DNA of 64,000 bases from Alphaproteobacteria bacterium (GTDB lineage: Bacteria > Pseudomonadota > Alphaproteobacteria > GCA-2731375), in assembly GCA_965232515.1 (NCBI GenBank), contig CBDDPY010000002.1, positions 3,488,001 to 3,552,000 of the forward strand, read 5' to 3'. The notes under the pieces were generated by a model, which worked only from the letters and a program-made list of their open reading frames with translations, was not told where the DNA came from and did no database searches. Below are positions 12,913-17,136 of this stretch, piece by piece. Position 1 is the stretch's first letter. Every line of letters begins with the position of its first letter. A program made the position numbers and the translations under genes.

Positions 12913-14451
12913 CTAACTCCCCGCGATGCGGCGGTCGTGGCCCGACCAGTGGGGTTCGCGGAGGTCCTTGCGTTTGATTTTGCCGACCGGGCTTTTGGGG
13001 AGCGGGTCGGTGCGGAATTCGACGCGGCCGGGCTTTTTGTAGGAGCCGAGGCGGTCGGTGCAGAGGTCGATGATTTCCTGCTCGGATACCGGCGTCTCGC
13101 CGTCGGTGACGCAGACGGCCATGGGCGTTTCGCCCCAGCGCTCGTGCGGCACGCCGAAGACGGCGACCTCGACCACGGCGGGATGGTCGGTGATGACGTT
13201 CTCGAGCTCGGCGGGCCAGATGTTGTAGCCGCCGGAGATGATCATGTCGTCGGACCGGTCCAGCATGTAGAGATAGCCGTTCTCGTCCAGCATGCCGATG
13301 TCGCCGGTCAGCACCCAGCCGTCGACCAGGCGCTCGGCCGTGGCTTCGGGATTGTTCCAGAAACCGACCATCTGGCCGTCGGTTTTGGCGGCGATCTCGC
13401 CGGCCTGGCCGGGCGGCAGCGGCTTGTTGTCGTCGTCGCGGATCTCGAGCTGGGCGAACGGCAGCGCGAGACCACAGGAACGCAGCGGCGTCGAGCCGTC
13501 GACGTCGGCGAACCATTGCCGCGGGCCCATCATGGCGACCGGCAGCACCTCGGTCTGGCCATAGCCCTGATAGAGCACGTCGCCGAAGATCTCGCGGCCG
13601 GTGAGCGCGGTGTCGTCGGCGATCGGCGCCGCCGCGATCAGCAGGCATTTCAACTTCGACCAGTTGCGTTCGCGCACGCCCGGCAGATGGTTGAGGGCGT
13701 TCAGCATGGTCGGGACCAGGAACATATAGGCGATGCCCTCGCCCTCCATGACGTCCAGCGTCTCGACCGGATCGAAATGGTCGAGCATGACGTTGCAGCC
13801 GCCGCCGAGCCAGACCGGCACGAACAGATAGCCGGAGCCGTGGCTGATCGGCCCGAGATGCAGGCAGGGATCGCCCGGCTCGACCGGCGGATAGAGATAG
13901 AACCAGTCGCGCCCGGCGGCGAGCCAGGCGCGATGCGTATAGGCGACGCCCTTGGACTGGCCGGTGGTGCCGCCGGTATGGCGGATGATGTAATTGTCGT
14001 CGGGATCGATCTCGAGGTTGGGATCGATATCGGAATGGCCGGCGAGCCAGGCCTCGTAGCCGTCGTCGCGCACGACGATGTGCCGGAGATCGTCGAGCTC
14101 GGCATCGATGCCGTCGACCTCGTGCGCGTACTTGTCGGCGACGATCACCGCCCGGCAGCCGGTATGGCCGAGCATGTGCAGATGCGCCTCGCGGCCGTTG
14201 CGCGGATAGAGCGGCACGCGCACGACATTGGCGACGGCGGCGCCCAGAAAGATGTCAGCCGACTCGACGCAATTGTCTTCCAGCACGCCGACGCGATCGC
14301 CGGGCTTCAGGCCCATGGCGATCAGCGCGTTGCCCATGCGCACGCCGCGCGCCCAGGCCTCGGCGAAGGTCAGCCGCCGGCCGCCGGCGACGATCGCCTC
14401 CCGCGTGGGATAAAACTGCGCGGCGCGGCGCATCTGCGTGCGCACATCCAT
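12913..14451 (-). CDS. AMP-dependent acyl-CoA synthetase/ligase
   Basis: HTGGTTGQSKG P-loop, YQGYGQTE, GWVLTGDIG, DRSDDMIISGGYNIWPAELE, LPKSPVGKI. Confidence 0.92.
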   Translation of the reverse strand: MDVRTQMRRAAQFYPTREAIVAGGRRLTFAEAWARGVRMGNALIAMGLKPGDRVGVLEDNCVESADIFLGAAVANVVRVPLYPRNGREAHLHMLGHTGCRAVIVADKYAHEVDGIDAELDDLRHIVVRDDGYEAWLAGHSDIDPNLEIDPDDNYIIRHTGGTTGQSKGVAYTHRAWLAAGRDWFYLYPPVEPGDPCLHLGPISHGSGYLFVPVWLGGGCNVMLDHFDPVETLDVMEGEGIAYMFLVPTMLNALNHLPGVRERNWSKLKCLLIAAAPIADDTALTGREIFGDVLYQGYGQTEVLPVAMMGPRQWFADVDGSTPLRSCGLALPFAQLEIRDDDNKPLPPGQAGEIAAKTDGQMVGFWNNPEATAERLVDGWVLTGDIGMLDENGYLYMLDRSDDMIISGGYNIWPAELENVITDHPAVVEVAVFGVPHERWGETPMAVCVTDGETPVSEQEIIDLCTDRLGSYKKPGRVEFRTDPLPKSPVGKIKRKDLREPHWSGHDRRIAGS

Positions 14452-14660
14452 GACATTCCTCCCAAAACAGACTGGTTCCCGGCGGCCGAGTTTAAGCGGA
14501 ATTCAATCGGCGCGCAGCACGGGACGGCGACGCGGCGATGGATTTGCAAACATTTCATCCGATGCACCCGACCGCGACCGGAAATTTCAACGCCACACCA
14601 AAAATAGAAAATATATTTGCATTTACTACTTAATCGTGTGTCTCTAAAAGTTGCCGCCTT

Positions 14661-14747
14661 GGTCGGGCCGGGGTTGTTGGCTTATCGCTCCCCAAGCATC
14701 GTGCTTTCAAAGCACAACGTGGCGCCAGCGACGAAACACGCCCGACC
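14661..14747 (+). ncRNA. Y RNA-like element 1 (minimal central domain)
   Basis: GGTCGGGC pairs with GCCCGACC; GTTGTTGGC pairs with GCCAGCGAC; has the shared TTATCG after the upper stem and ACACGCCC on the 3' side; small GTGCTT/AAGCAC hairpin. Confidence 0.7.
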
Positions 14748-14798
14748 GGGACAGGTTTTTGGAGTTCGGGGACGCGTCACGAGAGATGTCGTCCTGAA

Positions 14799-14926
14799 GT
14801 CCGGGCCGGAGAAGCAGGTTTATCGTTAACCTAATGGTCGGCGGTTCGATTCCGCCTCCGAACACTGGTTCGGATAGCTCAGTTGGCAGAGCACTAGGCT
14901 TACCTGGTTCACAAACACGCCCGGGC
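14799..14926 (+). ncRNA. yrlA: YrlA-class Y RNA (circularly permuted tRNA mimic)
   Basis: Closing stems GTCCGGGC/GCCCGGGC and GAAGCAGGT/ACCTGGTTC enclose a T-arm (GGCGG-TTCGATT-CCGCC), a loop-closed acceptor-like stem (TCCGAAC-ACTG-GTTCGGA) and a D-arm (TAGCTC-AGTTGGCA-GAGC), in T-A-D order; about 600 nt upstream of a Ro60 gene. Confidence 0.88.
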
Positions 14927-14969
14927 ACCGAAACCGCCTGAAGGCAGTTGGGTTGAGACGGAGGATGGC

Positions 14970-15086
14970 ATGACGAATACGCGATTTATCGACGGCTGGT
15001 CGAAAACGCCGTCGACGTACGTCGCCACGTCCGTTCGCGAGACCTGGCTGAATACGTCGGCCGGCAAACCGAATTATCGGTACTGA
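14970..15086 (+). CDS. Putative 38-aa small protein inside the Y RNA array
   Basis: GGAGG Shine-Dalgarno 5 nt upstream of ATG; MTNTRFIDGWSKTPSTYVATSVRETWLNTSAGKPNYRY*. Confidence 0.4.
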   Translation: MTNTRFIDGWSKTPSTYVATSVRETWLNTSAGKPNYRY

Positions 15087-15191
15087 CGACCGGCCGCTGA
15101 TCCGCGCGACAGCACAACATCACCGCAGCAAACCGGCAGGCCCAGGTTGGGCCTGACTGATCGGTCGGCGTCCCGCGTCGACAGATCCACG

Positions 15192-15321
15192 AGGTTTGGG
15201 CCGAAGGGTCAGGCTTATCGTAGCGACGAAAGGGCGGAAAGCCCGTCGCAGCGTTCCACCGAGGACGTGAGTCCCGTGAACGCGGGCGAAGACCGCCTGG
15301 TCCGCCGACACGCCCAAGCCT
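15192..15321 (+). ncRNA. Y RNA-like element 3 (non-tRNA multi-hairpin domain)
   Basis: AGGTTTGGGC/GCCCAAGCCT and GGGTCAGGC/GCCTGGTCC stems; GGGCCGAAG, GGCTTATCG and ACACGCCC motifs; internal hairpins GCGAC/GTCGC, GGGC/GCCC and GGAC-GTGA-GTCC. Confidence 0.75.
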
Positions 15322-15365
15322 TGCCGCGGCGACAGTGCGACGCGCACGCAATCCAAACATGAACC

Positions 15366-15505
15366 GGCGGTCCGGGCCGGCAGATCAGGCTTATCGTAGC
15401 CATAAGGCAACTGGTGTTTGGCCAGTGTAGGCGCCCCACCGAGGGCGCGAACCCCCCGTGGATGCGGGCGATGCCCGCCTGATCGAACGACACGCCCGGA
15501 CCGCC
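15366..15505 (+). ncRNA. Y RNA-like element 4 (non-tRNA multi-hairpin domain)
   Basis: GGCGGTCCGGGC/GCCCGGACCGCC (12 bp) and GATCAGGC/GCCTGATC stems; GGCTTATCGTAGC and ACACGCCC motifs; ends 17 nt before the rsr ATG. Confidence 0.75.
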
Positions 15506-15522
15506 CCGTTGGGGTAGAGACG

Positions 15523-17136
15523 ATGACTTTGCGAGATCTGTTTTCGCGGCGCCGGACGCCGCAGCACGAAGCTTTGCCCGGCCAGGTGGCGAACGCGGCC
15601 GGCGGGCATGCCTTCGCCGTCGATGACTGGGACCGGCTCGACCGGTTTCTGGTGCTCGGCAGCGAGGACGGCACGTTCTACATCGCGCCGCGCGCATTGA
15701 CGCGCGAGAACGCCGAAGCCGTCGAACGTTGCCTGGCCGCCGACGGCGCGCGGGTCGTTGCCCGCGTGGTCGAAATCTCCGATGCCGGCCGCACGCCAAA
15801 GAACGACCCGGCGCTGTTCGTGCTCGCCATGGCGACGGCCAGCGACGATCAGGCGACCCGACAGGCGGCGTTGGCCGCGCTGCCCCAGGTGGCGCGGACC
15901 GGCACGCACCTGTTCCACTTCGCCGAGTTCGTCGAGGGCTTTCGCGGCTGGGGCCGCGGCCTGCGGCGGGCGGTTGCAAGCTGGTACGGCGATCAGCCGA
16001 TCGACCGGCTGGCGCTGCAGATGGTCAAGTACCGGCAGCGGGACGGCTGGTCGCACCGCGACCTGTTGCGGCTCGCGCACCCGGTCACGGCCGATCCGCA
16101 GCGTCGCGCGCTGTTCGAATGGGCCCTGCGTGGCGGCGGCGCCCCCGCGTTGCCAATGTTGGCGCAGGGGTTCGATGCGGCGCAGGCACCGGGGGCCGAC
16201 GTGCCGGCGCTGATCCGGCGGCACGGCCTGCCGCGTGAGGCGTTGCCGACCGACGCGTTGAACGACGTCGCGGTCTGGGCGGCGCTGCTGGAACGGATGC
16301 CGATGACGGCGACGATCCGCAGCCTCGCCAAGATGTCGGCGGTCGGTCTGCTGCGGCCGATGAGCGAGGCGGCCGCCCAGGTCGCGACGCGGCTGGGCGA
16401 CGGCGAAGCGCTGCGCAAGGCGCGGGTGCATCCGCTGGCGCTGCTGGTGGCGCAGTCCGTCTACGCGCAGGGCCGTGGCTTGCGGGGCAAGCTGGAATGG
16501 GAGCCGGTCGCGGAGGTGATCGACGCGCTGGACGCCGCATTCTACCGGGCCTTCGCCAACGTCGAGCCGACCGGCAAGCGGCTGCTGCTGGCGCTCGACG
16601 TGTCCGGCAGCATGACCTGGGGCCAGGTCGCGGGCTCGCCGCTGACGCCGCGTGAGGCCGCCGCCGCCATGGTGCTGGTCACCGCGGCGACGGAGCGCCA
16701 CGTGCGCACCGTCGGCTTCTCGTCGGCCGGCCGGCTGCAGTCGCGGGGCATGTTCGGTGGCAGCCGCGCCGACCACGGCCTGGTGTCGTTGCCGATCTCG
16801 CCGGGACAGCGGTTGGCGGACGTTCTGCGGATCACCGCCGATCTGCCGTTCGGTGGCACCGACTGTGCCCTGCCGATGCTGTACGCATTGGATCGGGGAC
16901 TCGAGGTCGACGCGTTCGTGGTCTACACGGACTCGGAGACCTGGGCCGGGAAGATCCACCCGGTGCAGGCCTTGCGCGACTACCGGCGCAAGACCGGTAT
17001 CGCGGCAAAGCTGGTGGTGGTCGGCATGGTGTCGAACGGCTTTTCGATCGCCGATCCGGACGATGCCGGCATGCTGGACGTGGTCGGCTTCGACGCCGCC
17101 GCGCCAGCCGTCGTCGCCGACTTCATCCGGCGTTAG
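15523..17136 (+). CDS. rsr: Ro60 / TROVE-domain RNA-binding protein (Rsr)
   Basis: RLDRFLVLGSEDGTFY, RTGTHLFHF, KYRQRDGWSHRDLLRLAHP, KARVHP, vWA MIDAS LALDVSGSM, GGTDCALPM, YTDSETWAG, SIADPDDAGMLDVVGFD. Confidence 0.96.
   Translation: MTLRDLFSRRRTPQHEALPGQVANAAGGHAFAVDDWDRLDRFLVLGSEDGTFYIAPRALTRENAEAVERCLAADGARVVARVVEISDAGRTPKNDPALFVLAMATASDDQATRQAALAALPQVARTGTHLFHFAEFVEGFRGWGRGLRRAVASWYGDQPIDRLALQMVKYRQRDGWSHRDLLRLAHPVTADPQRRALFEWALRGGGAPALPMLAQGFDAAQAPGADVPALIRRHGLPREALPTDALNDVAVWAALLERMPMTATIRSLAKMSAVGLLRPMSEAAAQVATRLGDGEALRKARVHPLALLVAQSVYAQGRGLRGKLEWEPVAEVIDALDAAFYRAFANVEPTGKRLLLALDVSGSMTWGQVAGSPLTPREAAAAMVLVTAATERHVRTVGFSSAGRLQSRGMFGGSRADHGLVSLPISPGQRLADVLRITADLPFGGTDCALPMLYALDRGLEVDAFVVYTDSETWAGKIHPVQALRDYRRKTGIAAKLVVVGMVSNGFSIADPDDAGMLDVVGFDAAAPAVVADFIRR

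Follow-up and report, generated by a model that had tools for sequence, protein, structure and literature searches.

Four Y-RNA-like elements with one putative Ro-binding scaffold and differing central modules form a tandem array upstream of rsr in an alphaproteobacterial genome

Introduction

Few Y RNAs of bacteria have been studied closely, and in the Deinococcus model one RNA tethers Rsr, the Ro60 orthologue, to the effector polynucleotide phosphorylase (PNPase). A related arrangement is described here from Alphaproteobacteria bacterium (GenBank assembly GCA_965232515.1), in a stretch of 64,000 nucleotides (nt) of contig CBDDPY010000002.1, positions 3,488,001 to 3,552,000, hereafter called the window, in which four structured elements precede rsr. 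These elements are very probably four Y RNA genes, arranged in tandem, with one Ro-binding scaffold and differing centres.

The background on characterised systems was taken from Chen et al. 2014 (PMC4201824). According to that paper, each characterised species has at least two Y RNAs, and small RNAs a-d occur at rsr of D. radiodurans, two of them accepted as Y RNAs. In M. smegmatis and D. radiodurans, the Y RNAs encoded before rsr are cut from a common precursor, are stable and are bound by Rsr, which protects G7, G8, C9, G11 and A12 of the Deinococcus Y RNA. The Deinococcus RNAs have a metazoan-like helix; for Salmonella and M. smegmatis, only the 5' strand of the Ro-binding site is described as recognisable. 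A conserved YUAY follows the stem in YrlA RNAs, and the length of a 7-base-pair (bp) stem was linked to the cleavage of M. smegmatis YrlA by RNase P. The genome-wide search published there used the transfer RNA (tRNA)-like domain, and other Rsr-bound RNAs 'eluded bioinformatic discovery' (PMC4201824).

Methods

Loci carrying relatives of the window's Rsr were collected (59 loci from many phyla, Rsr identity 49-93%), and the sample is accordingly biased towards relatives of this protein. The closest relative (L001) has an Rsr 93% identical to that of the window, and neither L001 nor the window was included in the seeds of the covariance models. Since short and long elements were aligned out of register by MAFFT, two separate models were built: R1 from 13 minimal elements, and R2 from 34 longer alphaproteobacterial elements of other genomes, with only the two scaffold helices annotated. 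The search for 3' partners selected by complementarity, and for this reason it was used for the choice of seeds only and is no evidence of pairing. The alignments of R1 and R2 matches were fitted to the respective models, with the seeds included, so that they lean towards the structure; pairing percentages were compared with those of slid controls. For the count of positions relative to rsr, 151 kb of upstream and 190 kb of downstream sequence were searched. The merged count of R1 and R2 elements excludes the 6 weakest R2 matches, the R2 alignment having 150 rows.

Results

The elements have a common pattern, which starts with GGGCCG-N8-GG(C/U)UUAUCG and ends with ACACGCCC. Searched as GGGCCGN8GGYTTATCG, the start had 4 matches in the 64-kb window, all on the + strand, where 0.02 were expected and where 0 of 100 dinucleotide shuffles reached 4. 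Over the whole 7.39-Mb genome the motif was found 4 times on the forward strand and 0 times on the reverse strand, every time at the rsr locus, and the reversed control pattern was found 1 and 0 times, respectively. When both strands of the window were searched with R2 at an E-value of 1 or less, exactly four matches were obtained, and these were the four elements (58.7, 42.7, 42.2 and 39.0 bits for elements 2, 4, 1 and 3, respectively). With R1, element 1 was the sole match in the window and in the whole genome (35.9 bits); elements 2-4 of the window were missed by R1 even with the filters off, and R2 was therefore needed for the longer elements. Compared with shuffled sequences, folding by RNAfold gave z values of -2.7, -3.4, -4.2 and -5.5 for elements 1, 2, 3 and 4, respectively. 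All four elements lie on the + strand, 19-864 nt upstream of rsr, on the same strand as this gene and well within about 4 kb of it; the array occupies the 865 nt before rsr, and the lower stem of element 4 ends 19 nt 5' of the start codon. An earlier note, made from the sequence of the window by itself, had placed four elements here; all of them are present, and the coordinates agree within 2 nt. A fifth site resembling the 5' motif, at 15059, was without a 3' partner and was not matched by R2, and was taken as a chance occurrence.

The lower stem of the scaffold ends with GGGC paired with GCCC, and after it come a bulged C and a G whose partner is the C or U immediately 5' of GCCC. The internal loop is asymmetric: its 5' strand reads CG(A/G)NN, its 3' strand has 8-9 nt with ACAC at the end, and the upper stem of 8 bp closes on GG(C/U)-UUAUCG. 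UUAUCG stands directly 3' of the upper stem in all four copies, that is, at the loop start where stem-bulge RNAs (sbRNAs) and vertebrate Y RNAs have UUAUC. In 68/68 R1-matched elements, the U or C that precedes GCCC is the partner of G12, with C11 bulged, which gives a bulged-C helix; the 5' and 3' ends thus form a bulged stem, and this stem covaries.

In the four window copies, standard pairs make up 69 of the 72 stem cells; 11 of 18 pair positions vary in pair type, and both sides have changed at 10 of 18. The statement of the earlier note that the stems differ between copies while the pairing is kept was borne out by these counts. The 68 R1 matches had 92.6% of cells paired and double changes at 16 of 18 pairs (slid controls, 34-46%), and the best 150 of the 156 R2 matches had 91.5% of cells paired, double changes at 18/18 pairs and 693 cells changed on both sides (slid controls, 36-44%). 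The gap to the slid controls and the four copies of the window, which are not seeds, speak for real helices. The same note had proposed a new covariance model, built from the four stems, for regions upstream of TROVE genes; R2, built from other genomes, recovered all four elements, and its matches in relatives covaried at all of the pairs.

In Rfam, the consensus for the Deinococcus Y RNA starts with this lower-stem motif too, with GGGCCGAAG at its end, and continues with an upper stem and UUAC. The reading of the elements as Y RNA genes is based on this consensus of an Rsr-bound RNA and on the protection and processing data of Chen et al. 2014. A Y-RNA-like array is supported by the independent covariance model, the covariation, the strict linkage to rsr and the match to the Deinococcus Rfam consensus. 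The coordinates of the elements, and of the other features of the window and of related loci, are collected in Table 1.

Table 1. Features of the Y/rsr locus of the window and selected features of related loci
Feature	Position	Strand	Description
Element 1	14659-14749	+	Short Y RNA, 91 nt; scaffold, pyrimidine-rich stretch after UUAUCG and one small hairpin
Element 2	14797-14928	+	Predicted YrlA-type Y RNA, 132 nt; scaffold with T arm, 7-bp acceptor-like hairpin and D arm
Element 3	15192-15321	+	Y RNA, 130 nt; predicted three-hairpin centre without Rfam family
Element 4	15368-15503	+	Y RNA, 136 nt; paralogue of element 3
rsr	15523-17136	+	Ro60 orthologue, 537 aa; Pfam TROVE and vWA_Ro60
AMP-binding enzyme gene	12913-14451	opposite to rsr	Upstream neighbour, from Pfam
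A/T-rich block	14589-14658	+	Putative promoter or operator of the array, proposed from conservation and position only
Open reading frame	14970-15086	+	38 codons, in the spacer between elements 2 and 3
Largest array	L035:1467-2972		Rhodomicrobium metagenome-assembled genome
Downstream array	L049:4593-5012		Acidobacteria metagenome-assembled genome
Minimal element	L029:180-247		Passes RF01656 gathering score
Minimal element	L055:1671-1736		Passes RF01656 gathering score
Minimal element	L043:2879-2943		Passes RF01656 gathering score
Minimal element	L027:1429-1496		Passes RF01656 gathering score
Minimal element	L023:2855-2925		Passes RF01656 gathering score
Minimal element	L021:330-398		Passes RF01656 gathering score
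Odd tRNA call	L003:2794-2867		Overlaps YrlA-type element found by R2
Odd tRNA call	L009:2839-2912		Overlaps YrlA-type element found by R2
Odd tRNA call	L012:509-587		Overlaps YrlA-type element found by R2
Odd tRNA call	L016:2396-2471		Overlaps YrlA-type element found by R2
Odd tRNA call	L059:2336-2411		Overlaps YrlA-type element found by R2

The linkage to rsr was strict in the related loci also. All matches were on the rsr strand (68/68 for R1 and 156/156 for R2), and of the unique match intervals 171 were upstream of rsr, 0 inside it and 3 downstream, the last all from one locus (L049). Among 41 genomes around that of the window, R2 matches were found only in G000 and its congener G001, and a TROVE domain above the cut-off was found in the same two genomes only; the other 39 related genomes, without TROVE above the cut-off, gave no R2 matches. 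This co-occurrence indicates a cassette that is patchily distributed and travels as a unit.

From the merged R1 and R2 searches, 171 elements were obtained; they come from 46 of 60 sources, and the highest number at one locus was 11. One element was found in 7 sources, 2 in 3, 3 in 13, 4 in 11, 5 in 6, 6 in 3, 8 in 2 and 11 in 1, so that four copies are near the middle of the range. The array is far less exceptional than the earlier note supposed, since at least 3 copies are present in 36 of the 46 element-bearing sources and at least two Y RNAs per characterised species had already been reported. The array of the window is a typical member of a widespread and under-described arrangement. In 7 of the 14 element-free sources, the available sequence before rsr is no longer than 50 nt. 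The last element of the related loci ends a median of 66 nt before rsr, often 19-36 nt. Across 150 related elements, GGGCCG was present in 126, UUAUC in 110 and UUACC in 33. The largest array was observed in a Rhodomicrobium metagenome-assembled genome, in which 11 scaffold elements stand within the 1.5 kb before rsr, and at one Acidobacteria locus three elements stand downstream of rsr and are followed by 10 tRNA genes.

The central modules of the relatives comprise bare hairpins (62-76 nt), tRNA mimics and other conserved types, including a two-hairpin module common to several Rhodomicrobium-like loci. Module classes assigned by regular expressions, which are crude and serve as a rough guide, were 37 minimal, 32 T-arm only, 25 tRNA-like, 24 other and 7 D-arm only (n=125).

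Within the window, element 2 was aligned to the YrlA family RF02553 with 35.2 bits (E-value 1.2e-5; model positions 23-85 of 114, at 14832-14896). Its T arm, hairpin and D arm follow each other in the order of YrlA, with the T-loop UUCGAUU and the D-loop AGCUCAGUUGGCAGAGC, and in the predicted fold a 7-bp acceptor-like hairpin stands between the two arms. A tRNA-like module was found in element 2 only, and this element is, as far as its sequence can tell, a YrlA-type tRNA mimic. Elements 1, 3 and 4 had no YrlA match at an E-value of 10 or less, and elements 3 and 4 had no match on their own strand to any Rfam family at this limit. Elements 3 and 4 are paralogous and share a predicted core of three hairpins; this common fold has 38 pairs, but the support for it is weak, since only 5 of these pairs show a double change among four sequences. 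When the centres of elements 1, 3 and 4 were compared by BLAST with the 59 loci, they were found in the closest relative only, and the three-hairpin module was thus not traced beyond the genus in this sample. Of the modules named in the earlier note, the tRNA-like one (element 2) and the unrecognised fold of elements 3 and 4 stand, whereas element 1, the shortest of the four with 91 nt, exceeds the minimal elements of 62-76 nt found at other loci. With the YrlA model, which the note had proposed as a check, element 2 aligns below the gathering score of 69 bits, and the other three elements remained unmatched.

Some odd tRNAs called by ARAGORN in the related loci (for example, Asp with anticodon ATC) overlap YrlA-type elements found by R2 (Table 1), and these calls are probably miscalls of tRNA-like modules.

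Conservation was measured against the closest relative, with the third codon positions of rsr (86.8% identical) as the neutral proxy. Identity was 96.7% for element 1, 98.5% for element 4, 90.8% for element 3 and 85-96% for the spacers, and elements 1 and 4 are conserved above the neutral rate. The counterpart of element 2 in the relative (L001:2275-2405) retains the same secondary structure. A 242-nt contig (X14) from the RNA sequencing (RNA-seq) library of a relative, with a depth of 22, spans 14679-14921 only. All 14 of its 14 substitutions fall in the spacer 14764-14798 (35 nt) and none in elements 1 or 2; over 14799-14921, element 2 has no difference from the window. This contig is a weak hint at a higher abundance of elements 1-2 relative to the remaining locus. 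The mosaic of differences in element 2 and the spacer suggests module replacement or recombination within the array, and, in the sequences compared, the scaffolds are stable while one central module is replaced or fast-diverging in one lineage. Two further libraries (X21 and X24) gave 0 reads; both were made from poly(A) RNA and so are no test of these RNAs.

Several observations weigh against the reading of the elements as four Y RNA genes. All four elements stay below the gathering scores of the Rfam Y families: element 2 has 35.2 of the 69 bits of RF02553, which is attributed to flanks that differ from those of YrlA, only the tRNA-like core being aligned; element 1 has 25.0 bits against RF01656, with a gathering score of 38; and RF00019 and RF01053 have no window match at an E-value of 10 or less, while element 3 of the closest relative has 21.6 bits against RF01053 (gathering score 80 bits), with an E-value of 0.37. 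A search of Rfam at gathering thresholds gave nothing in the region, both of the 2 hits in the window being tRNAs. The Ro-binding motif GNCGAAN0-1G (resembling GGUCCGA) is exact in element 3 only (GCCGAAG); elements 1, 2 and 4 read GCCGGGG, GCCGGAG and GCCGGCA, respectively, so that three of four copies have a G in place of the first A of the published GNCGAA. In those rows of the aligned related elements that were inspected by eye, CGGAG seemed commoner than CGAAG. Element 2 is only 70.5% identical to that of the closest relative over its whole length and 57.3% in its centre, and the YrlA score of the relative's element 2 is 15.8 bits, with the identity of the T-loop and the D-loop lost there; this module is therefore not uniformly constrained. 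At 7 related rsr loci, 3 kb of sequence before the gene held no element. A scan for the sigma-70 consensus gave no promoter at the locus, the A/T-rich block included, and the terminator scan found no + strand terminator and only terminator-like sites on the minus strand. Contigs of RNA libraries may derive from DNA, and in one library (X4) the depth was even, about 6, over the entire locus and the divergent neighbouring gene, as DNA could also produce.

The absence of a predicted terminator between the elements, their common strand with rsr, and the end of element 4 so close to the start codon, a spacing found again in the relatives, would also be expected if the four structures acted in cis as a long rsr leader, with Rsr binding its own 5' untranslated region for the control of translation or stability and with no separate RNAs made. 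This is improbable as a full account. The three elements of L049 are downstream of rsr, which means that the position relative to the start codon is not fixed; the upstream Y RNAs of M. smegmatis and D. radiodurans are, according to PMC4201824, released as stable Rsr-bound RNAs; and a plain operator needs no differing conserved centres such as a tRNA mimic. A leader function and a Y RNA function do not exclude each other.

The divergence of the tRNA-like centre of element 2 from the closest relative, with the loss of loop identity, and the identity of element 3, which is only slightly above that of the third codon positions, would fit a locus at which only one or two copies work and the others are decaying duplicates, their stem being kept by descent. 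Decay, however, would not produce the double changes that keep the pairing between the four copies, and the conservation of elements 1 and 4 exceeds that of the third codon positions of rsr, element 2 of the relative has the same secondary structure, element 2 of the X14 contig is unchanged next to a spacer with 14 changes, and arrays of at least 3 are present in most of the element-bearing sources; such decay is, if anything, a shade less probable than a pure leader. That the elements are direct repeats with paired ends, and that element 2 has tRNA-like arms, could recall a dispersed repeat or small mobile element, of the type of a repetitive extragenic palindrome (REP) or a miniature inverted-repeat transposable element (MITE), or tRNA pseudogenes, standing beside rsr by chance. 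This is hardly credible and is already contradicted by the restriction of the motif to the rsr locus in the 7.39-Mb genome and by the co-occurrence of R2 matches and TROVE, the 39 related genomes without TROVE above the cut-off having none; R1 and R2 match only the neighbourhood and strand of rsr in the 60 sources, and ARAGORN calls no tRNA at the locus.

The protein encoded by rsr has the domain order of Ro60/Rsr, TROVE (9.6e-45) followed by vWA_Ro60 (9.3e-62) in Pfam, and rsr is the sole TROVE gene in the 7.39-Mb genome searched. Its relatives in PDB are human RO60 (9nen, 407 bits), D. radiodurans Rsr (2nvo, 403 bits) and Xenopus Ro60 (1yvp, 388 bits), all with E-values of 1e-114 or less, and the similarity to the three proteins is about equal. 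The open reading frames immediately downstream of rsr gave no Pfam match. As the earlier note had stated, no rtcB, rtcA or rtcR stands beside rsr: RtcB is encoded at a distance of about 793 kb, a search of the genome (96% complete) gave neither RtcA nor RtcR, and the locus is not a Salmonella-type rsr-yrlBA-rtcBA RNA repair operon. The A/T-rich block that precedes element 1 agrees with the closest relative in 66 of 70 columns, versus 18 of 29 just before the block. An open reading frame of 38 codons in the spacer between elements 2 and 3 has a GGAGGA site 5 nt upstream; it is open in the closest relative too, but has 11 non-synonymous versus 2 synonymous codon differences, was rejected as a conserved gene and probably does not encode a conserved protein.

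ARAGORN called no tRNA at the Y/rsr locus of the window, and there is no tRNA array there. At 15 of the 51 related loci to which ARAGORN was applied, rsr and the Y elements were observed among 5-22 tRNA genes (L011, L018, L019, L020, L023, L028, L031, L032, L033, L037, L038, L040, L041, L047 and L049). These arrays are on the rsr strand except at L032, and the usual order is tRNA array, Y elements, rsr. Two published surveys of tRNA arrays contained no occurrence of TROVE, Ro60, Y RNA, Rsr or RtcB.

Discussion

By homology, the Rsr ring would receive each of the four RNAs on its outer face, an expectation drawn from the lower-stem motif, upper stem and UUAC that the Deinococcus Rfam consensus has in common with them. 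The variable centre would project from the ring as a second module that may gate access or recruit a partner: tRNA-like in element 2, three-hairpin in elements 3 and 4, and a short hairpin with a pyrimidine-rich stretch in element 1. Each RNA may accordingly have a distinct effector. By analogy with the processed precursors of other species, the array and rsr would most likely be co-transcribed, starting in the conserved A/T-rich block that precedes element 1, and individual RNAs would then be cut from the transcript.

Those Rsr-bound RNAs which were out of reach of a search by the tRNA-like domain can be recovered by a model of the Ro-binding scaffold alone, as the 171 elements from 46 of 60 sources, with many kinds of centre, illustrate. 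What the module of a Y RNA recruits thereby becomes a comparative question, in which modules can be clustered and correlated with gene content, and the locus of the window, with four RNAs and one protein in 2.5 kb, is a compact test system. As a tentative proposal, less likely to be right than wrong in full but worth stating, the bacteria with this clade of rsr may carry 3-11 Y RNAs per locus on one scaffold that is animal-like almost position by position (bulged-C lower stem, UGGG/CCCA, UUAUC), with only the centres exchanged between copies and strains. If an animal-like scaffold is indeed shared, the bacterial and animal Y RNAs would be homologous or would have been transferred together with Ro60, and both the upper stem and UUAUC would be of ancient origin and linked to Ro60. 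If the combination of a Y RNA battery and rsr within tRNA arrays (15 of 51 loci) is likewise true, it would be an undescribed cassette for combined tRNA supply and RNA surveillance.

The literature searched contained no paper on Y RNA arrays of more than 4, on UUAUC in bacterial Y RNAs or on rsr inside tRNA arrays, and the supplementary tables of PMC4201824, with their loci of several YrlA-like sequences, may already include some of the present arrays. The extent of the animal-like resemblance and the arrays are what is absent from that literature; the resemblance itself is partly known, since both YUAY and a metazoan-like helix were noted by Chen et al.

Like nematode sbRNAs and vertebrate Y RNAs, the elements have a bulged-C lower stem, an internal loop, an upper stem and UUAUC at the loop start. 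The consensus sequences of RF01656 and R1 agree in CGGNCCGRAG, UGGGUUAUC, CCCA and CAACUUGNCCG, and six minimal elements of related loci pass the RF01656 gathering score of 38 (39.6-43.1 bits; Table 1), so that automatic annotation would call them nematode small RNAs; the scan gave 103 matches on 20 loci, the remainder being tRNAs. Against RF00019, a related element scored 29.2 of 38 bits. That the bacterial consensus is nearly identical to the one of nematode sbRNAs is relevant to where Y RNAs came from and to what UUAUC means, and should be read beside a 2015 review which calls bacterial Y RNAs 'not homologous' with vertebrate ones. Unlike the eukaryotic Y RNAs and sbRNAs, which are single RNA polymerase III genes, the RNAs of the window form an array beside rsr. 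PMC4726728 ascribes the upper stem and UUAUC of eukaryotes to DNA replication, and nothing suggests such a role at the window's locus.

Thermus phage phiLo, as described in PMC12135203, has two Y-RNA-like sequences with CGAA, Yrl1 and Yrl2, upstream of its Ro60 gene; by this description it resembles the window, and it differs in being phage-borne and in having two RNAs.

Element 2 is arranged like YrlA/YrlB of Salmonella Typhimurium and of M. smegmatis (RF02553), with the T arm first, then the acceptor-like hairpin and then the D arm, and its predicted acceptor-like stem of 7 bp is that of M. smegmatis YrlA. The locus is also placed as in M. smegmatis, upstream of rsr and not beside rtcBA or rtcR. 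Unlike in Salmonella and M. smegmatis, both strands of the Ro-binding site are conserved and covary in the window elements, and there are four RNAs instead of two.

The window differs from Deinococcus in its central modules and in having no tRNA gene interleaved. Like Yrn1 and Yrn2 of Deinococcus (RF01053), the elements are upstream of rsr on the same strand, with several per locus, and both strands of the Ro-binding helix are kept; taken alone, the window offers a good, though rather ordinary, case of an RNA class already known.

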